Positions 1 through 44,916 of a stretch of 47,221 nt of DNA are shown piece by piece. The notes beneath the pieces are model-generated. The model saw only the letters and a list, made by a program, of their open reading frames with translations, searched no databases and was not told the DNA's origin. The stretch is from the IMG/VR virus record IMGVR_UViG_2660238524_000005; one strand, 5' to 3'. A program made the translations under genes and the position numbers. How positions within the stretch are numbered: position 1 is the stretch's first letter; every line of letters begins with the position of its first letter. Source of the DNA: a virus. Lineage: Duplodnaviria > Heunggongvirae > Uroviricota > Caudoviricetes.

Positions 1-249
1 ATGGCGGCAGCACAACCGCTGGTATTTGATGCAGAACTGGACACCGTGCGTGGGCGTCTTGGTAGCGTAAAAGGCGTTAATTACGATACGGCGATGTGGA
101 GTTCGGCAATTAACAGCCGCAACAACGTGACCACTGATGCAGGCGCTGGCTTTGAGCAAACATTGACGGGGCTAACGCTTGGTATCGACAGCCGTTTCTC
201 CCGTGAAGAAAGCAGCACAACTCAGGCGGGTGTGGTCTGGACGTTCTGA
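1..249 (+). CDS. Autotransporter-like outer-membrane beta-barrel protein, C-terminal fragment (5' end outside window)
   Basis: ORF runs from window edge; C-terminus ...QAGVVWTF ends in aromatic residue with alternating hydrophobic pattern typical of autotransporter barrels; host flank outside the prophage. Confidence 0.4.
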   Translation: MAAAQPLVFDAELDTVRGRLGSVKGVNYDTAMWSSAINSRNNVTTDAGAGFEQTLTGLTLGIDSRFSREESSTTQAGVVWTF

Positions 250-258
250 TAACAGAAA

Positions 259-291
259 ATAAACAGGCCGTGATGTGTCGCGGTCTGTTTA
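259..291 (+). terminator. Imperfect hairpin plus T-run downstream of the host ORF stop
   Basis: AAACAGGCCG...CGGTCTGTTTAT directly after stop at 249; one mismatch in stem. Confidence 0.3.
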
Positions 292-310
292 TCGAATTAA
301 ATGCAGATAT

Positions 311-340
311 AAAAAAACCAACCGCAATAGGTTGGTTTTC
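311..340 (-). terminator. Intrinsic terminator downstream of the tRNA fragment (minus strand)
   Basis: Minus-strand reading gives AACCAACC...GGTTGG stem followed by T7. Confidence 0.4.
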
Positions 341-350
341 TTGGGATTTT

Positions 351-396
351 TGGTCGGCACGAGAGGATTTGAACCTCCGACCCCCGACACCCCATG
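351..396 (-). tRNA. Partial tRNA-Pro(GGG) (proL-like): 3'-terminal 46 nt from anticodon loop to CCA; phage attachment-site core, not an intact tRNA
   Basis: Reverse complement reads CATGGGGTGTCGGGGGTCGGAGGTTCAAATCCTCTCGTGCCGACCA, matching the 3' half of enterobacterial tRNA-Pro as I recall it; upstream 30 nt cannot form acceptor or D arm (would need CGGCACG at the 5' end). Confidence 0.65.
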
Positions 397-611
397 TCAC
401 CGCGCCTGAAACGCTGGAGACCGCGCCATTGCTGGGCTGGCAGGGTGTTTCACTGTGTGCGCAAACAGTGCATAATTCGCAAAATTCACGCTATATACAT
501 CAATGAGTTAAGAGAGATTTTTCCCCACTCCTAAATGGTCAGTTTTTGGAGCATTACTATATTAATAGGTTCCGTCTATAGCACTTTTTGATTTGCTTCT
601 AATATGCTTTT

Positions 612-638
612 CTGTGGATAAGATTTAGTTATCCACAG
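612..638. promoter_or_regulatory. Perfect inverted pair of consensus DnaA boxes (TGTGGATAA-N7-TTATCCACA)
   Basis: CTGTGGATAAgatttagTTATCCACAG; both 9-mers equal the DnaA box consensus TTATCCACA; about 200 bp upstream of the ORF at 835. Confidence 0.45.
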
Positions 639-834
639 ACTTATCTCCTAAGTTTCCGAGCAGCTACATGTTTTTTGTTGATTGTTTTATGTTTGGCGTA
701 AAGTCAACAATTACTTCGCTTTTTGACCATTTTAGCCCATTGGAAATTACGATCATCTTCATGTAACCTTCTAAAACTTACTAAGATTGCAGAAGTTAAA
801 GCAACATAGCTCGTAGTTTCTTAAAGGTGATTTA

Positions 835-1602
835 ATGCCACAGCCGGCGCTAAAAGCGAACGAAATCAGCAGTGAATTAATCGATATTCTTGCGGCTCGG
901 AATACGATATCCGAAATGCAATATTTTCGTTATATCAGAGATATAGAAAAGTTGCGCGACAGCGCATCTGAGGACTATCTCAAAGCGTTGGCTAATGGTG
1001 CTTTTGGGCGTAAAGATACTGCAGTTGCATTCTTTGAAGAAGCATTGAAGCATAACAACCTGATCATTGCTCAAAATTATGTAGTTTATCTCAACGATTA
1101 CGGCAGCTTCCGTGAAGTTGAACAAGTGGTAAATCGATTAGTTGAACGTTATAACTCCCCTACGATGCTGTCCCATGCATGGGAAGCTAACTTGTTCTTG
1201 GGGCGTATTGACAAAGCGCTCTACTATGCTGAGAGATTGATAAGTATGGTAGATGAAAAGGAGGCTGAATTGGTTAAGCACCTCGCAGCCACAGCACTGG
1301 CCCAATCCACGACCTTCAAAAGTGCAACTGGAATTACTGATGAAGAACTACAGGATATTGCAAACCGCATAGTGGATATCATGGCTGACCATAAAGTTAG
1401 TCCTGTTGCTATGTCTTTCTGCTCTATCCCTGAAGAGCGTACGTCATCATATGTCATGGCAGTTAATACTGAAGATTCTGATGTTCTCTCTGATATGAAC
1501 TTGGATATAGCATTTTCTCTTGCAGAAAATGAAAGTTTGATTGGAAAACCCTTCAGCGTATGGTTTGAAGGGCGTTTGGAGGAACCTGCGCGTGCCAGTT
1601 AA
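835..1602 (+). CDS. Hypothetical protein, first gene of AT-rich two-gene cargo operon
   Basis: 255-aa ORF, SD AAAGGTGA 5 nt upstream of ATG; protein-like composition; no family recognised. Confidence 0.6.
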   Translation: MPQPALKANEISSELIDILAARNTISEMQYFRYIRDIEKLRDSASEDYLKALANGAFGRKDTAVAFFEEALKHNNLIIAQNYVVYLNDYGSFREVEQVVNRLVERYNSPTMLSHAWEANLFLGRIDKALYYAERLISMVDEKEAELVKHLAATALAQSTTFKSATGITDEELQDIANRIVDIMADHKVSPVAMSFCSIPEERTSSYVMAVNTEDSDVLSDMNLDIAFSLAENESLIGKPFSVWFEGRLEEPARAS

Positions 1603-1975
1603 TAGTTCCGATTTTATCGCTTTCGCAAAAGATTGTGAAAAGCGTAACGACGAAATTGGTTACAGAAACGCTGTCGCACGTGCGTATTATGGTGCTTATC
1701 ACCACGTACTTCCGTGTTTGACCATGGGGCCGAAAGAAAGTCACCAAGGCCTCATTGACTATCTTGTTAACGATGCTTGGAAGGGTAACGAACCTTTTGA
1801 AAAAAGAGACTTAATTGGTTTGGGGTATGCTCTTCAATCGCTTAAGGATCAGAGAATAGTTTGTGATTACAGACTTAACGACACTATTACGCCAACCCAA
1901 TCAAGCACCGCGATTAAGACTGCAGAGAAATTAATCCAGCGTTGCGCTAATATGACCAAGTCTAAAGCGTCCTAA
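1594..1975 (+). CDS. Small hypothetical protein with R-x6-H motif (HEPN-like?), translationally coupled to upstream gene
   Basis: GTG start with SD GGAGG 7 nt upstream, overlapping the stop of the 835-1602 ORF; motif RAYYGAYH; ORF track gives 1541..1975 from an upstream TTG. Confidence 0.5.
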
Positions 1976-1980
1976 TCCCC

Positions 1981-2008
1981 AAAATTGGCCTCATTTGAGG
2001 CCAATTTT
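1981..2008. terminator. Strong bidirectional hairpin terminator closing the two-gene operon
   Basis: AAAATTGGCCTCA tt TGAGGCCAATTTT, perfect 13-bp inverted repeat flanked by A- and T-runs, 6 nt after stop. Confidence 0.55.
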
Positions 2009-2034
2009 ATTATGCATTGTATTTAATTTCACCG

Positions 2035-2400
2035 TGCGGAAGCATTACCCAATCATATGGTTCCGCGTATAAATTTTCGTTGATTTCGCGTCGCTGTGGG
2101 CTATGAGCCCTTGTGGTCTACTCCCTGTTTATCAAACAAAATGCAGCTAGTGCGCGTATTTTGTGGAATGTGGGGGCGCAGCTCCATCGTCAAATTATTA
2201 CACAAGCCTAACGAATCACGGGGCAATGAAAAGTATGGCTAAGATAGGCAGGTGCGGATACCTCTTTACTGCGTTTGTTATTACGCTCGGTATACGGTGA
2301 ACGATATACGGGCAGGCAACGTTATCGCGACTGTTATCAATAATACGTTTCAGTTTGTCCTCGAACTACATCACAACCGGCTTGAAAACTAATTACTGGA
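2035..2400 (-). pseudogene. Degraded remnant of a tyrosine-integrase 3' region (paralogous to the intact int at 3553-4737)
   Basis: Nucleotide blocks align by eye with int 3608-3920 (e.g. GTATAAATTTT..GATTTCGC.TCGCT.TG and CCTCTTTACTGCGTTT); minus-strand translation gives ...KLKRIIDNSRDNVACPYIVHRIP then loses frame; no ORF of 60 aa or more. Confidence 0.55.
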
Positions 2401-2458
2401 TTTTGTGCCTCCATAATCATATGATTTAAAATGTTATTTTATAAAAAAGGAGTTGTAT

Positions 2459-3415
2459 ATGACCAATTTGTATAAGTTTATGGGAGCGGATATAATTGAT
2501 AAATTGATGATGGATGAAACACATATAGGAATAAAATTCTCTCATTTACATGAATATAATGATCCCTATGAGTTTTTCCTTACTATTGATTTTAATCGCG
2601 GTTCTGATGAGTTAGCATTTTACAATGAAATGATTGGCATGGTTACAAAACAACCAGCAACTTGTTTTACGAAAAGCCCTGTGATACCACCTATGTGGGC
2701 ACATTATGCAGGTAATTCTTCTGGTTTTGTAATAGAGATTAATGAGGAGAAGTTTAAAAAGTATTTGGATGAAATCGGCTTCCAGGATCATAGTTCAATA
2801 GCAGATGTTGAATATAAAGATTCTCCAGATACAGGTATTGAAGACATTCTGGCGAGAGCATTTCATATCTGTAAACCTCGTTATATCTACTGGCTACAAT
2901 CCTGTATAATGACAGCCGCATATTTGACAAAACAAACTTGCTGGAGTTATGAGCAGGAACGTCGCGTAATAATTAATGAGAAAGCACTTACTAAACTGAA
3001 TGACAATCTTATGCTCCTTCCGGTACCGATTAATTGTATAACTGGAGTTATAGTTGGGCACAAATCAAATGATTTATTAAAGCAGAAAATTCAATCTTTA
3101 GCTAAAAAGGCTAAATGTAGATATTTCGAAATGGTAATAGGAAAAACAACAACTACACCATTTCTTTTATCTCAAAATCTCAAATCACACCAATTTATTA
3201 ATGGCAATATAATACCTGCATCAAGGCAATGTAAAAAATGTTATGAGCCTTTAAACATGGAAAATAAAGTTTGTGGCTGGTGTGGAATTACTAATCATGA
3301 TGTGAAAATGGCAGAGTACCGTAATTCATTTCGAATGATAGCCAACTATGGTGGGCTGGATAAATATATATCATCCATGAATAAGATTACTGAAGAGTAT
3401 AATAAGGGTAAATAA
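2459..3415 (+). CDS. DUF2971-family protein with C-terminal CxxC...CxxC zinc-ribbon-like motif
   Basis: LYKF...NDPYEF and PPMWAHYAGNSSGFVIEI motifs characteristic of DUF2971 (from memory); CKKCYEP...CGWCG near C-terminus; SD AGGAG 6 nt before ATG 2459; strongly AT-rich. Confidence 0.65.
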   Translation: MTNLYKFMGADIIDKLMMDETHIGIKFSHLHEYNDPYEFFLTIDFNRGSDELAFYNEMIGMVTKQPATCFTKSPVIPPMWAHYAGNSSGFVIEINEEKFKKYLDEIGFQDHSSIADVEYKDSPDTGIEDILARAFHICKPRYIYWLQSCIMTAAYLTKQTCWSYEQERRVIINEKALTKLNDNLMLLPVPINCITGVIVGHKSNDLLKQKIQSLAKKAKCRYFEMVIGKTTTTPFLLSQNLKSHQFINGNIIPASRQCKKCYEPLNMENKVCGWCGITNHDVKMAEYRNSFRMIANYGGLDKYISSMNKITEEYNKGK

Positions 3416-3552: not shown

Positions 3553-4737
3553 CTAACCGGTTTTAATTTCTCCATGAGGGACAACAATCCAATCTATATG
3601 ATTTTTAGTATAAATTTTAGTAGATTTCGCATCGCTATGTGCCATTCGTCCCTGCGGATCAATCCCTTGTTTATCAAATAGGTGAGCTGCCAAAGCTCTT
3701 ATTTCATGGAATGTAGGTCTTTGTTCCATTGCTAGATGATTGCATAGTCCGAGTTTGTCTCGCACGGAAGAGAATGACCGACTCAAATAATCTGGTGCAA
3801 CTTGAGTTGGGTGCGAAACCTCTTTACTGCGTTTAACATGCCGTTCTGGGATTCTATGAACGACAAAGGGACTGGCCACATTGTCACGGCTATTGTCAAT
3901 TATCCGTTTCAATTCTTCACCAATTGGTATTGCAACATGTGATGCCTCCTTTTTTTGTACTTTTTGCCTATGGATGTATAGTGTACCATATATGCCATTT
4001 TGTGGTTGTTCGAACCAAACACATCCACATAAACCGTCTTTAGGTTCGCGAATTGAGTAACGGATTCGCGATACTTCGAGTCGTGCATGTGTAGTCTGCA
4101 ATGCTAGGTCCATTGCTGTTCTTAACCATGGTGCAGCGGCCTGCCTGATAGCTATAAAATGCTCGAGTGACAGGCGCCGTCTTTTCTTCTCATCAGTCCT
4201 ACGCATTTTTTTTCTGATGGCCGGGTTATCCTGCATTAGTGATTCATCGACCGCATAAGAGAACAACTTTTTAAGAAAGCTGACCTTTCTGTTCTGCACA
4301 TTTGCGGATGCGCTGGCATGATATTTGTTGATGTAGGCATTAACGTGTTCAAGTTCGATATCGCATGCCGGAACATTTACGAAAAACGCTTTTACGCGTA
4401 GAGCGTCATTTTTCCAGTCATCTAAGGTACTCTGGGAAGGTCGTTCGTCTTCGATAATTCTGGCCATTATGTGATCGACATGTTCAGCAAATGGTTTTGC
4501 TTCTCCGGTGACCCCGCCAGATTCTCTAATAAGATTATCCACTGATGGGTATAATTCTGATCGCATCCTCAGGTTGTACTCTCTGGCGATTGCAACGGCT
4601 ATTGCCCGATCCTTACCTATATTTTTCTTTTTTCCGGTAATAAGTGTGAATTTATAAACACCTCGATCTTTATCAAAAACCAGATAATCAGGAAGATGTC
4701 TGTATTCTTTTTTACGTGGCCTTGCCGCCATGGTCAT
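3553..4737 (-). CDS. int: Phage integrase (tyrosine recombinase)
   Basis: 394 aa; C-terminal catalytic region with conserved H-x-x-R and terminal Tyr context (...HEIRALAAHLF...AHSDAKSTKIYTK); adjacent to att core and overlapped by xis. Confidence 0.9.
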   Translation of the reverse strand: MTMAARPRKKEYRHLPDYLVFDKDRGVYKFTLITGKKKNIGKDRAIAVAIAREYNLRMRSELYPSVDNLIRESGGVTGEAKPFAEHVDHIMARIIEDERPSQSTLDDWKNDALRVKAFFVNVPACDIELEHVNAYINKYHASASANVQNRKVSFLKKLFSYAVDESLMQDNPAIRKKMRRTDEKKRRRLSLEHFIAIRQAAAPWLRTAMDLALQTTHARLEVSRIRYSIREPKDGLCGCVWFEQPQNGIYGTLYIHRQKVQKKEASHVAIPIGEELKRIIDNSRDNVASPFVVHRIPERHVKRSKEVSHPTQVAPDYLSRSFSSVRDKLGLCNHLAMEQRPTFHEIRALAAHLFDKQGIDPQGRMAHSDAKSTKIYTKNHIDWIVVPHGEIKTG

Positions 4738-10118: not shown

Positions 10119-10138
10119 AGGTCGGTCATGAGCACTAA
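9959..10138 (+). CDS. Small ORF (59 aa, TTG start) not in the supplied track
   Basis: SD AAGGAG 9 nt upstream of TTG; translation [59 protein letters not shown]; stop overlaps start of the replication gene. Confidence 0.35.
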
Positions 10139-11099
10139 ATTAACCGGCTATGTATGGGATGGTTGCGCTGCATCAGGCATGAAATTATCCAGCGTGGCAA
10201 TTATGGCCCGCCTGGCTGATTTCAGTAATGACGAAGGTGTGTGCTGGCCATCAATTGAAACCATTGCCCGTCAGATTGGCGCGGGGATGAGTACCGTCAG
10301 AACGGCTATCGCACGGCTGGAAGCAGAAGGCTGGTTAACGCGTAAGGCGCGTCGCCAGGGTAACCGCAATGCGTCGAATGTTTATCAGCTTAACGTTGCG
10401 AAGCTTCAGGCAGCGGCATTTTCTCAACTGTCAGATTCTGACCCGTCAAAATCTGACGCATCAAAATCTGACGCATCAAAATCTGACGCATCAAAATCTG
10501 ACCCGTCAAAATTTGATGCGTCGAAATCTGGCAAAAAAGCGGGTTTTCACCCGTCAGAATCTGGCGGGGATCCGTCAGTAAAATCAAAACATGATCCGTC
10601 AGATAAAAAACCTTCTCGTCCGGACGCTTCGCAACCGGACACGCAGACGGCTGAACAGGATTTTTTAACTCGCCATCCTGATGCGGTTGTATTCAGCCCT
10701 AAAAAGCGCCAGTGGGGGACGCAGGATGATTTGACCTGCGCACAGTGGCTCTGGAAAAAAATCATCGCCCTGTACGAGCAGGCTGCCGAATGTGACGGCG
10801 AGGTGGTTCGTCCCAAAGAACCGAACTGGACAGCCTGGGCAAACGAAATTCGCCTGATGTGTGTGCAGGATGGTCGTACTCACAAACAAATCTGCGAGAT
10901 GTACAGCCGCGTCAGCCGCGATCCGTTCTGGTGCCGTAACGTGCTCAGCCCGTCGAAGCTGCGGGAAAAATGGGATGAGCTTTCTCTGCGCTTATCGCCG
11001 TCCGTCAGCACGTACACAGAAAAACGCGAAGACCCGTACTTCAAAGCCAGTTACGACAATGTGGACTACAGCCAGATCCCGGCAGGATTCAGGGGGTGA
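10128..11099 (+). CDS. Replication initiation protein (lambda O-like, iteron-containing)
   Basis: N-terminal winged-helix region; internal tandem repeat encoding SKSDA units; position after cro/cII-like genes. Confidence 0.7.
   Translation: MSTKLTGYVWDGCAASGMKLSSVAIMARLADFSNDEGVCWPSIETIARQIGAGMSTVRTAIARLEAEGWLTRKARRQGNRNASNVYQLNVAKLQAAAFSQLSDSDPSKSDASKSDASKSDASKSDPSKFDASKSGKKAGFHPSESGGDPSVKSKHDPSDKKPSRPDASQPDTQTAEQDFLTRHPDAVVFSPKKRQWGTQDDLTCAQWLWKKIIALYEQAAECDGEVVRPKEPNWTAWANEIRLMCVQDGRTHKQICEMYSRVSRDPFWCRNVLSPSKLREKWDELSLRLSPSVSTYTEKREDPYFKASYDNVDYSQIPAGFRG
10431..10567. repeat. Iteron array (candidate ori) inside the replication initiator gene
   Basis: About 8 direct 15-bp repeats of TCAAAATCTGACGCA (3 perfect, others 1-4 mismatches). 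Confidence 0.65.
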
Positions 11100-41104: not shown

Positions 41105-44100
41105 ATGGCAGTAAAAATTTCAGGTGTACTGAAAGACGGCACAGGAAAACCGGTACAGAACTGCACAATCCAGCTGAAAGCAAAACGTAACAGTACCACG
41201 GTGGTGGTGAACACGCTGGCATCTGAAAATCCGGATGAAGCCGGGCGTTACAGTATGGACGTTGAGTACGGTCAGTACAGCGTTATTCTGTTGGTGGAAG
41301 GATTCCCGCCGTCACATGCCGGGACCATCACAGTGTATGAAGATTCCCGACCCGGTACGCTGAATGATTTTCTCGGTGCCATGACGGAGGATGATGCCCG
41401 TCCGGAGGCACTGCGCCGTTTTGAGCTGATGGTGGAAGAGGTGGCGCGTAACGCGTCCGTGGTGGCACAGAACACGGCAGCCGCGAAGAAGTCAGCCAGT
41501 GATGCCAGCACATCAGCCCGTGAGGCGGCAACCCATGCGACTGATGCTGCAGGCTCAGCACGCGCAGCCAGCACGTCAGCCGGACAGGCCGCGTCGTCGG
41601 CTCAGTCAGCGACTTCCAGCGCAGGAACGGCATCAACAAAGGCTACTGAAGCATCAAAAAGTGCTGCCGCTGCAGAGTCCTCAAAAAGCGCGGCAGCTAC
41701 CAGTGCCAGTGCCGCGAAAACGTCAGAAACGAATGCTGCAGCGTCACAACAATCAGCAGCCACTTCTGCATCCACCGCAACTACGAAAGCGTCAGAAGCT
41801 GCCACCTCAGCCCGGGATGCGGCGGCTTCAAAAGAGGCGGCAAAATCATCAGAAACGAACGCATCCTCGAGCGCCAGTAACGCAGCTTCCTCGGCAACAG
41901 CGGCAGGAAATTCCGCGAAGGCGGCAAAAACGTCAGAGACGAACGCCAGGTCTTCTGAAACGGCAGCGGGACAGAGCGCCTCGGCTGCGGCAGGCTCAAA
42001 AACAGCGGCTGCGTCGTCTGCCAGTGCAGCGTCAACAAGTGCCGGGCAGGCCTCAGCCAGTGCCACCGCCGCCGGAAAATCGGCAGAAAGCGCCGCATCG
42101 TCTGCTTCAACAGCCACAACGAAGGCTGACGAAGCCACTGAACAGGCCAGCGCAGCAGCGAGGTCTGCTTCCGCAGCGAAGACATCCGAAACGAACGCGA
42201 AAGCGTCGGAAACCAGCGCAGAATCCTCAAAAACGGCTGCCGCATCGTCAGCCAGTTCGGCGTCGTCATCGGCATCATCTGCGTCTGCTTCAAAAGATGA
42301 GGCGACCAGACAGGCGTCAGCAGCGAAGAGCAGCGCCACGACGGCATCCACGAAGGCAACAGAGGCGGCAGGCAGTGCGACGGCAGCATCTCAGAGCAAA
42401 ACTACTGCTGAATCCGCTGCGACCCGTGCGGAAGCTGCTGCTGATCGTGCTGAAGAGATTGCCGGTGCAGTTGCGATGGAAGACGCAAGCCTTACAACTA
42501 AAGGTGTTGTGAAACTTAGCAGTGCTGTTGATAGCACCAGTGAATCGCTGGCCGCAACGCCAAAAGCAGTTAAAGCAGCCAATGACAATGCGAATAGCAG
42601 GGTGCCATCTAACCGAAAAGTTAACGGAAAAGCACTGACTGCGGATATAACATTAACGCCGAAAGATATTGGTACTTTAAATTCAGTAACGATGTCTTTC
42701 TCTGGCGGGGCTGGGTGGTTCAAACTGGCTACGGTTACCATGCCACAAGCGAGTTCCATCGTTTACATCGCATTGATTGGTGGCGCTGGTTACAACGTCG
42801 GTTCCCCACATCAGGCAGGCATTTCAGAACTGGTTCTACGAGCAGGCAATGGAAACCCCAAAGGAATTACCGGGGCTTTGTGGAAGCGTACAGCCGTCGG
42901 ATTAACGAATTTCGCCTGGATCAACACATCCGGCGATACATATGATATTTACGTTGAGATTGGCAATTATGCGACGAGTGTAAATATCCATTGGGATTGT
43001 ACTGCAAATGCGTCAGTTTCTGTTTATACCTCGCCAACATATTCAGCGAGTAAGCCTTCCAGCGTTACCTATGGTGTTGTTTATACGATGTATAGCTCAC
43101 ATCAGAAACCTACACCATCAGATATTGGAGCACTGCCAACAACCGGAGGAACAGTTTCAGGTCCGTTGTCTGTTACAGGTGGATTAACTGGTTCATTGAA
43201 TGGTAATGCAAGTACAGCCACGAAATTGCAGACGGCAAGATCTATCGGTGGAGTTGTTTTCGACGGTTCTGCAAATATTAACCTTCCAGGTGTAAACACT
43301 ACGGGTAATCAGAACACCACTGGTAATGCTGCAACTGCTACAAAACTTCAGACTGCAAGAAAAATATCCGGTGTTCCATTTGATGGTTCTACTGATATCA
43401 CTTTAACCGCCGCGCATGTGGCTGCTTTTGCCAGAAGGGCAACGGATACATATGCCGATGCGGATGGGGGCGTTCCCTGGAATGCCGAATCAGGCGCTTA
43501 TAAGGTCACCCGCTCTGGCGACAGCTATATTCTGGTTAACTTCTATACCGGAGTCGGAAGTTGCCGGACCTTGCAGATGAAGGCGCATTACAGAAATGGT
43601 GGTCTGTTCTACCGTTCTTCAAGAGACGGTTATGGTTTTGAGGAAGACTGGGCAGAAGTTTATACCTCGAAAAATCTTCCACCAGAAAGCTACCCAGTCG
43701 GCGCACCAATCCCGTGGCCATCAGATACCGTTCCGTCTGGTTATGCCCTGATGCAGGGGCAGACTTTTGACAAATCTGCCTACCCGAAACTTGCAGCCGC
43801 TTATCCGTCAGGCGTGATCCCTGATATGCGTGGCTGGACGATTAAGGGCAAGCCCGCCAGTGGTCGTGCCGTATTGTCTCAGGAACAGGACGGCATAAAA
43901 TCGCATACCCACAGCGCCAGCGCATCCAGTACTGATTTGGGGACGAAAACCACATCGTCGTTTGATTACGGCACTAAATCCACGAATAACACTGGTGCGC
44001 ATACCCATAGTGTTAGCGGTACGGCTGCTTCAGCCGGTGCACATACCCATTCGATGACATTTGTTTCAGGTGGTTCCAGTGGTGCTCCGGGAAGTGGATC

Positions 44101-44332
44101 ACCTGATTATTCTAAATACAGTGTTAACACTTCTTCTGCAGGCGCTCATACGCACTCTGTATCGGGTACTGCTGCAAGCGCAGGTGCACACGCACATACT
44201 GTAGGTATTGGTGCGCATACGCACTCGGTTGCGATTGGTTCACATGGACACACCATCACCGTTAACGCTGCTGGTAACGCGGAAAACACCGTCAAAAACA
44301 TCGCATTTAACTATATTGTGAGGCTTGCATAA
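41105..44332 (+). CDS. stf: Side tail fiber protein (Stf-like), intact
   Basis: N-terminus [26 protein letters not shown] and C-terminus ...[19 protein letters not shown] match lambda Stf from memory; Ala/Ser/Thr-rich shaft with repeated KTSETNA units; C-terminal GAHTHS/HxH repeats. Confidence 0.8.
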
Positions 44333-44916
44333 TGGCATTCAGAATGAGTGAACAAGCACGGACCATAAAAATTTATAATCTGCTGTCCGGAACTAATGAA
44401 TTTATTGGTGAAGGTGATGCATATATTCCGCCTCATACAGGTCTGCCAGCAAACAGTACCGACATTGCACCGCCAGATATTCCAGCTGGCTTCGTGGCTG
44501 TTTTCAACAGTGATGAGTTATCGTGGCATCTCGTTGAAGATCATCGGGGTAAAACGGTTTATGACGTGGCTTCCGGCGACGCGTTATTTATTTCTGAACT
44601 CGGTCCGTTACCGGAAAATGTCACCTGGTTATCCCCGGAAGGGGAGTTTCAGAAGTGGAACGGCACAGCCTGGGTGAAAGATGCAGAAGCAGAAAAACTG
44701 TTCCGGATCCGGGAGGCGGAAGAAACAAAAAACAGCCTGATGCAGGCAGCGAATGAGCATATTGCGCCACTTCAGGATGCTGTAGATCTGGAAATCGCAA
44801 CGGAGGAAGAAAACTCGTTGCTGGAAGCCTGGAAAAAGTATCGGGTGTTGCTGAACCGTGTTGATACATCAGTAGCACCGGATATTGAGTGGCCTGCTGT
44901 CCCTGTTATGGAGTAA
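44332..44916 (+). CDS. tfa: Tail fiber assembly protein (Tfa)
   Basis: 194 aa; MAFRMSEQ...[10 protein letters not shown] closely resembles lambda Tfa (from memory). Confidence 0.85.

Follow-up and report, generated by a model that had tools for sequence, protein, structure and literature searches.

What do the two overlapping genes at positions 835–1975 of the IMG/VR virus record IMGVR_UViG_2660238524_000005 encode, and do they act together as a toxin and its antidote? The window, by which we mean the whole 47,221-nucleotide stretch of this Caudoviricetes DNA, is identical to a stretch of an Escherichia coli O25b:H4 (ST131-type) chromosome, and the same two coding sequences were called in that identical record by the NCBI Prokaryotic Genome Annotation Pipeline (PGAP; WP_001136067 and WP_001145023). 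An earlier reading of the letters alone, made without database searches (the sequence-only reading), had recognised neither protein. It had seen a HEPN-like motif in the smaller one and suggested a toxin-antitoxin or abortive-infection pair. We find that the two genes form a self-contained, mobile prophage cassette, as seen in operon anatomy, conservation, strict pairing, mobility, the folds of both proteins and the mapping of their residues. As to function, sequence comparison, structure models and analogy lead us, with slightly less than even confidence, to a toxin-antitoxin or phage-exclusion module in which a HEPN effector encoded by the second gene would be held in check by the product of the first.

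The operon anatomy was examined in the window and in related loci. Gene 1 occupies 835–1602 on the + strand (open reading frame, ORF, of 255 amino acids, aa), and gene 2 follows on the same strand at 1592–1975, with a GTG start at 1592 and a length of 127 aa, in frame with a 144-aa ORF that spans 1541–1975. The two genes overlap by 11 nucleotides (nt), and a Shine-Dalgarno (SD) sequence for gene 2, GGAGG (1578–1582, + strand), lies 9 nt ahead of the GTG, still within the 3′ end of gene 1. The layout given in the sequence-only reading, a 255-aa ORF followed by a small ORF whose GTG start, preceded by GGAGG, overlaps the first stop, thus agrees with the ORFs, with the PGAP calls and with the starts of homologues, the length of the small protein being 127 aa. 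An SD-like GAGG or GGAGG ahead of gene 2 is kept in all lineages compared. The start codon is ATG in most divergent lineages, GTG being limited to the clade of the window. An upstream TTG at 1541, which that reading had named as a start that would give a different domain, was rejected: homologues begin at the MPV/MAV position, and because they mostly have ATG plus an SD sequence at the position equivalent to the GTG, the start at 1592 is settled. With its overlapping stop and start and its SD sequence, the pair is a true operon of two translationally coupled genes, carried in a slot for prophage cargo.

The pair is closed, as had been noted, by a perfect 13-bp hairpin, found at 1981–1993/1996–2008 between gene 2 and a convergent integrase remnant (inverted repeat AAAATTGGCCTCA/TGAGGCCAATTTT, 2-nt loop), which is a likely terminator. 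A simple terminator scan did not flag this hairpin, probably since its loop rule demands at least 3 nt; in most other lineages gene 2 is trailed at the same place by hairpins of unrelated sequence. The G+C content of the pair is 42–43% versus ~51% in the flanking host DNA, so that the description of the pair as AT-rich holds in direction and has to be reduced in degree to moderately AT-rich. A promoter scan returned nothing above shuffle expectation, and an Rfam search of window positions 1–2500 gave no credible match. The leader of gene 1 (window 640–834, alignment A4) is divergent apart from short conserved islands (GTCAAnnnTTGACAT, TTGGAAAT, TGTAACCTT, AAGATTGC and AAAGCAAC), the first of which, GTCAAnnnTTGACAT, is −35-like and is degenerate in the window. 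These islands suggest a conserved promoter or an element of the 5′ untranslated region.

Homologues of both proteins are spread over Enterobacterales at 35–96% identity. Fifty-six loci with a gene 1 relative (down to a hidden Markov model E-value of 1e-26) were fetched: 27 near the window pair, 16 distant IMG/VR loci, 11 in a baseplate context (5 of them scanned) and 2 from Aeromonas, many of the 56 being near-duplicates. In every gene 1 locus scanned, a gene 2 relative lay directly downstream on the same strand, either abutting or with an overlap of 4, 11, 14 or 20 nt. Among distant gene 2 homologues, one was paired with only a 109-aa protein that resembles the C-terminal domain of gene 1, and another with a 257-aa protein of which only the TPR-like part was detectable. 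Three scans with single proteins as query brought up nothing.

The surroundings of the pair vary. It stands between an attachment (att) site and an integrase gene (int) beside two types of integrase, the window type (77–90% identity) and the CFT073 type next to glaH; in Hafnia and Serratia prophages it separates the antiterminator Q gene from the holin/lysis genes, and in Mu-like prophages of Aeromonas it separates mor from the endolysin gene. A further prophage group has it upstream of baseplate genes (V/W/J-like), and one copy occupies a non-phage chromosomal site. Given at least five different genomic contexts, we conclude that the pair behaves as a mobile moron cassette. Among 5426 complete E. 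coli genomes, a near-identical pair was found in 54–55 and a divergent pair in a further 44, CFT073 included, so that ~99 of the 5426 (~2%) carry it, ST131 and CFT073 among them. A tblastn search of deposited phage genomes with gene 1 gave no match; IMG/VR prophage contigs do carry the gene. E. coli NY1601 has a type I-E CRISPR array between queE and ygcE, and the spacer nearest its leader (L030 1501–1535) matches window positions 1279–1310, within gene 1, at 100% identity. A consensus AAG protospacer-adjacent motif precedes the protospacer at 1276–1278. Gene 1 has thus been encountered on incoming DNA.

What kind of protein does gene 2 encode? The HEPN-like character proposed for it was borne out by both structure prediction and profile searches. 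In the AlphaFold2 model (mean predicted local distance difference test score, pLDDT, 91.9), helices at residues 5–17, 21–42, 71–93 and 101–122 make a four-helix up-and-down bundle, with an insert helix (51–66) between core helices 2 and 3. The top matches of the model in a Foldseek search of the Protein Data Bank (PDB) were all HEPN proteins (AF0298, SsR10, TT1696, sacsin HEPN, HepT, Csm6 and AbiV), with modest scores (best E 5.8e-3, TM 0.59–0.66). The profile of the gene 2 family matches PDB 9xbd, a 'HEPN domain-containing protein', at E 9.6e-7 and AF0298/2hsb (UPF0332) at E 0.002. Pfam PF05168 is matched by 13 of 22 family members at E ≤ 0.01 (best 2e-5), and some homologues are labelled UPF0332 or HEPN by their source databases. 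These profile and model comparisons support gene 2 as a HEPN protein of the AF0298/UPF0332 (HEPN-T) type.

The motif on which the HEPN call had originally been based is another matter. RAYYGAYH, taken in the sequence-only reading for the R-x4-6-H signature of HEPN RNases, comprises residues 30–37 of gene 2 (nt 1679–1702), in the middle of helix 2 (21–42), and the Rx4-6H motif of HEPN domains sits at the end of core helix 3 (PMC3710099). R30 and H37 are invariant within the gene 2 family; because the position of R30 is Thr in AF0298 and that of H37 is Tyr in 9xbd, R-x6-H is no motif of the clade. An R-x4-6-H pattern was also found in 39% of gene 2 shuffles and in 44 of the 74 window ORFs of at least 100 aa, and the pattern alone is therefore uninformative. 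From the antiparallel topology of the model, H37 would lie far from R88. Helix position, clade alignment and chance frequency thus rule out R30-x6-H37 as a catalytic motif; since neither residue stands at the catalytic position, the HEPN call was correct though the reason stated for it fails.

At the end of core helix 3 (71–93), where the motif belongs, gene 2 has R88-I-V-C-D92-Y93: the Arg is retained, the His is absent, and the canonical Rx4-6H is not found. In the AF0298-like HEPN-T family and in AbiV the motif His is lost, often replaced by Asp, the Arg is kept, and an alternative conserved His is supplied by the insert between helices 2 and 3; an Ex3[KR] motif on helix 2 is found in many HEPN families as well (PMC3710099). 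Gene 2 has each of the AF0298-like HEPN-T features, that is, the Arg kept, the His changed to Asp, a second His from the insert (H51, at the start of the insert helix) and Ex3[KR] as the invariant E21-I-G-Y-R25 on helix 2. In 33 sequences (39–86% identity), 17 polar or aromatic residues are invariant, including E21, R25, H51, R88, D92 and Y93; of these, H51, R88, D92 and Y93 align with AF0298 and 9xbd, and E21 with a Glu of AF0298. Mapped after PMC3710099, the predicted active-site residues are E21-x3-R25 (nt 1652–1666), H51 (1742–1744) and R88/D92/Y93 (1853–1870), all on the + strand, and the conserved residues fall on the Ex3[KR], alternative His and motif Arg reported there for AF0298 and AbiV.

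AF0298-like HEPN-T proteins (UPF0332/COG1895, PF05168; PDB 2hsb and 9xbd) share with gene 2 a length of ~125 aa and the same five-helix HEPN fold, with YY on helix 2, a His opening the insert between helices 2 and 3 (H51 here) and R-x3-D-Y ending core helix 3. Gene 2 differs from them in that the window protein alone remains sub-threshold against Pfam HEPN (E 0.099), in having the family-specific invariant residues R25, N26, R30, H37 and E67, and in being phage-borne with a partner that is a TPR/C-domain protein and not a nucleotidyltransferase of the MNT type.

That partner, gene 1, was modelled with the same mean pLDDT of 91.9 and falls into two parts. Residues 1–165 (nt 835–1329, + strand) are a TPR-like solenoid in the predicted structure; among Pfam families, TPR_15, TPR_14 and TPR-S were matched just under cutoff, and TPR_15 was matched by 8 of 26 relatives, so that fold and profiles agree on TPR. 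Residues 166–255 (nt 1330–1599, + strand) make a small alpha/beta domain with an isoelectric point (pI) of 4.1 and a net charge of −12, modelled with an alpha-beta-beta-alpha-beta topology, in a protein that is acidic as a whole (pI 4.7). No Pfam family and no PDB sequence was matched by this C-terminal domain. Its profile found only 52 clusters among 1.84 billion representatives, nearly all of them 250–277 aa long with the domain in the same position. In BFVD, the full-length gene 1 model was matched by two uncultured gut siphovirus proteins. Four acidic residues of the C-terminal domain are invariant (E200, E201, D220 and E231), and the most conserved stretch of the protein is aa 216–247, a helix and strand of the same domain. 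Within the same genomes, gene 1 shows 35–39% identity versus 54–62% for gene 2, so gene 1 changes faster.

Gene 1 sits upstream, where the MNT antitoxin stands in classical HEPN/MNT pairs, and with type VII HepT/MntA the pair has in common a two-gene dyad with the partner upstream and a small HEPN-fold protein downstream. Gene 1 as an MNT or other enzyme was nevertheless dismissed, there being no nucleotidyltransferase signature and no Pfam or PDB sequence support; the topology of its C-terminal domain also differs from what we take to be that of the Pol-beta nucleotidyltransferase fold. A cryptic type VII-like system would have gene 1 modify the HEPN protein, for example at Y93, through an unrecognised enzymatic C-terminal domain, as MNT antitoxins AMPylate HepT. 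Y93 is indeed invariant and aligns with a Tyr that differs (Y to F) between PDB 9xbd and 9xbc, and the four invariant acidic residues of the C-terminal domain count on the same side. Nucleotidylation of a conserved C-terminal Tyr has been proposed for MNT-associated HEPN proteins (Anantharaman et al. 2013, PMC3710099) and has been shown for HepT/MntA (PMC7641770), a conserved Tyr beside the motif Arg being a further likeness between that system and this one (PMC3710099, PMC7641770). Neutralisation of the AMPylation type is, however, backed by no feature of gene 1, and HepT has a canonical Rx4H, of which gene 2 lacks the His. On sequence grounds the pair thus falls outside type VII HepT/MntA, failing both on the MNT partner and on the Rx4H motif, and a concealed modification system of this kind strikes us as highly improbable.

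How might the two proteins work together without such an enzyme? In the toxin-antitoxin or phage-exclusion module that we tentatively favour, the cassette, made up of the leader, gene 1, the coupled gene 2 and the hairpin terminator, shuttles among unrelated prophage backbones. The effector or toxin would be gene 2, acting as an RNase that needs no metal or, at the least, inhibiting by binding RNA; its putative active site would combine R88 of the degenerate R-x3-D-Y, the alternative His H51 from the insert and, on helix 2, E21-x3-R25. Gene 1, through its acidic C-terminal domain, would bind and mask the HEPN protein, an antitoxin-like stoichiometric binding, and its TPR array would offer a surface that binds proteins or acts as a sensor. 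When another phage infects, or the gene 1 protein is lost, the HEPN activity would be freed and translation halted, the outcome being superinfection exclusion, abortive infection or prophage addiction. The generic traits of a type II toxin-antitoxin operon are present, with the partner upstream, translational coupling, and an acidic partner (pI 4.7) versus a mildly basic gene 2 protein (pI 8.3). Toxicity, RNase activity, neutralisation by gene 1 and an anti-phage effect are what we infer for the pair.

Two comparisons bear on this proposed module. AbiV, a lactococcal abortive-infection HEPN protein placed near the AF0298 clade, is an rRNA-cleaving antiphage RNase (bioRxiv 10.1101/2024.05.05.592566) and by analogy offers a precedent for gene 2 as an RNA-targeting effector. 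The alternative His of AbiV is at the same position as in the AF0298-like HEPN-T family (PMC3710099), and Foldseek gave weak matches of gene 2 to 9bj5 and 9bj7 (probability 0.2–0.5); AbiV differs in being longer (201 aa), in having an RNA as its antitoxin (type III) and in showing no significant sequence similarity to gene 2. The other comparison concerns helical-repeat partners: LA2681 HEPN domains are fused to, or in an operon with, TPR proteins, and AbiU2 shares an operon with a protein of Sel1 repeats (Anantharaman et al. 2013, PMC3710099). These too combine a HEPN effector with a helical-repeat protein in a conflict-system setting. The parallel is conceptual only, since LA2681 and AbiU2 keep the canonical Rx4-6H, belong to other HEPN clades, and had no sequence relationship to either gene that we could find; nor does that paper describe the acidic domain at the C-terminus of gene 1. 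In its most specific form, the pair might represent a new HEPN exclusion or toxin-antitoxin class, with an RNase built on H51 and R88, the acidic alpha/beta domain as a brake in place of an MNT, and a fast-evolving TPR array that would sense a phage protein. So detailed a scheme we consider possible and, on balance, rather unlikely.

Several observations weigh against a toxic or defensive function. PADLOC-DB v2.0 gave no match for gene 1, gene 2 or two distant homologues of gene 1, both families are entered in PHROGs as of unknown function, and no annotation gives the pair a toxicity or defence role. The canonical catalytic His of the Rx4-6H motif is missing in gene 2, and HEPN domains without it are often non-catalytic binding modules (PMC3710099). 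For gene 1, no Pfam DNA-binding domain (helix-turn-helix, ribbon-helix-helix or AbrB) was matched and no such fold is seen in the model, a domain of that sort being typical of type II autoregulation. In a Pseudocitrobacter faecalis assembly (L069, 2501–3639), a 2-nt deletion splits gene 1 into ORFs of 143 aa and 111 aa and gene 2 is intact; if real, this split argues against strong toxicity, though an ORF for the C-terminal domain persists. The company kept in the prophage slot points the same way. Sister prophages with the same integrase at the proL site have unrelated cargo between att and int (L066 3922–4791; L067 3925–4981; L068 3608–4606), namely a 289-aa protein, a pair of 66 aa and 283 aa, and a DUF4760 protein, among which no PADLOC match and no catalogued defence gene was found. 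The site is for this reason a variable cargo slot and not a proven defence hotspot.

Much of this would suit a non-catalytic HEPN module, in which a degenerate gene 2 would only bind a ligand (nucleotide, RNA or protein) and, together with the TPR protein, would serve the prophage otherwise than as a toxin, for example through control of lysogeny or lysis timing or as an anti-defence decoy or sponge against host immunity. The missing His beside an R88-x3-D92-Y93 that is in place, the regulatory or substrate-binding role common among motif-less HEPN domains (PMC3710099), the lack of PADLOC matches and the assembly with a broken gene 1 and an intact gene 2 all fit such a module, as do the several copies that adjoin lysis genes downstream of Q or mor, a place that also houses genes of use to the phage. 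Yet H51, R88 and E-x3-R are invariant in the clade, in line with the prediction of an alternative active site, and toxin neutralisation typically goes with a strictly coupled, acidic partner encoded upstream. The cassette is, moreover, dispensable, patchy (~99 of 5426 E. coli genomes) and shifts position between phage types, unlike a core regulator. A purely ligand-binding pair is accordingly an explanation that we take seriously and judge unlikely.

Could the pair be a toxin-antitoxin system that serves only to hold the prophage, or its cargo slot, in place by post-segregational killing, with no sensing of phage and a merely structural TPR array? The operon logic of such an addiction module is identical to that of the favoured module with a HEPN effector held by gene 1, and its site at the prophage edge beside att and int would penalise loss by excision. 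The decay of a toxin is likewise what one might see in an IMG/VR prophage (L034, 4774–5176) in which a 5-nt deletion frameshifts gene 2 and gene 1 is intact. With one disrupted copy of each gene, the asymmetry of gene loss is uninformative. Many copies are in the Q-lysis or mor-lysis moron slot and not at an edge, no DNA-binding domain for conditional cooperativity was found, and the large repeat array of the partner evolves faster than the effector, as sensing surfaces tend to do more than simple labile antitoxins. We hold addiction alone to be improbable, and of the readings considered we stay with the toxin-antitoxin or exclusion module in which gene 1 may also sense.

The literature was silent on the pair: the four RefSeq accessions searched for occur in no paper found, a search on UPF0332/COG1895 gave no match, the P2/P4 hotspot paper has no such system, and those portions of the DefensePredictor paper (a recent E. 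coli defence screen) and its supplements that were covered do not list the accessions. NCBIfam gave no match either. With no PADLOC, Pfam or literature match that names it, the pair is an uncharacterised cassette. For the branch of AF0298/UPF0332 proteins without the catalytic His, we know of no demonstrated activity. The cassette presents a compact member of this branch in which the MNT has been swapped for a TPR protein with a domain outside Pfam, and it moves among sites where morons classically sit in lambdoid, Mu-like and other prophages. It thereby offers a tractable E. coli system in which to probe whether the alternative HEPN site (insert His plus motif Arg) is catalytic and by what means a HEPN effector is controlled by a partner that is no enzyme. 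Should the cassette protect against phages, it would be a new small system with a new sensor-antitoxin domain; if it has no role in defence, it is one more uncharacterised moron. Our interest in it is moderate, chiefly because it allows these tests of the alternative active site and of a partner other than an MNT.

The region around the pair reads, in order, narP, a yejO-like autotransporter pseudogene, a tRNA-Pro fragment, gene 1, gene 2, the hairpin, an integrase pseudogene fragment, a DUF2971 gene and an intact integrase gene, after which come lambdoid prophage genes. The tRNA-Pro fragment is the att core (351–396, − strand), 46 nt that correspond to nt 32–77 of tRNA-Pro, from the anticodon loop to CCA, and that form a displaced copy at the int-proximal end of the prophage. 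The core is identical to the annotated tRNA-Pro of NZ_CP015085; the intact tRNA-Pro lies beside yejM at the other prophage end, just outside the window, within which ARAGORN found no full tRNA. On the other side, the integrase pseudogene fragment (approximately 2010–2359, − strand) is a C-terminal part, called by PGAP as 'recombinase, frameshifted, missing N-terminus' and seen also by tblastn; at only 36–39% identity to the intact integrase, it is the 3′ remnant of a third integrase type. The DUF2971 gene (2459–3415, + strand; G+C content 32–36%) matches the PADLOC candidate defence system PDC-S31 (E 5e-22), and its protein has a C-terminal zinc-ribbon-like CxxC...CxxC. The intact prophage tyrosine integrase gene (3553–4737, − strand) is convergent with the pair. 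The location of the pair in a slot between the tRNA-derived att core and the integrase, as first described, is right in so far as both flank it, and needs amending in that the integrase remnant and the DUF2971 gene separate it from the intact integrase. This insert (2010–3415) is limited to the lineage of the window, and elsewhere the pair directly abuts the integrase. A remnant of a third integrase type and a DUF2971 gene next to the pair indicate mosaic recombination at this prophage end.

Between the att core and gene 1, at 611–639 and ~198 nt before the latter, lies a perfect 11-bp inverted repeat (TCTGTGGATAA-N7-TTATCCACAGA), each arm of which is a consensus DnaA box, the two standing head to head; 3 consensus DnaA boxes occur in the window versus 0.42 expected. 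The palindrome is kept at the same distance in L010, L020, L022 and L023, including loci where gene 1 is only 48–63% identical, and in L009 both arms are altered symmetrically (TTGTTAATAA/TTATTAACAA). The CFT073-type and Q-holin-type copies have no such repeat upstream, and it may therefore be an operator or an att-arm element of the att/int module, its membership of the cassette being uncertain.

Three further observations were made in passing. In Serratia fonticola (L005–L007, 1–1589), the pair lies ~3.6 kb downstream of a 565-aa ApeA-like HEPN protein with weak matches to Pfam ApeA_NTD1 and HEPN_Apea, both being in a degraded prophage beside fimbrial genes. At window 10416–10530, within the ORF 10128–11099, a 15-bp unit (TCAAAATCTGACGCA-like) is repeated six times in tandem, and the array resembles the iterons of lambdoid replication origins. 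Finally, window 44675–44873 matches the Rfam RNA family IS009 at 209 bits, above the gathering score, inside the ORF 44332–44916, which comes after the long ORF 41099–44332 near the tRNA-proximal end of the prophage.

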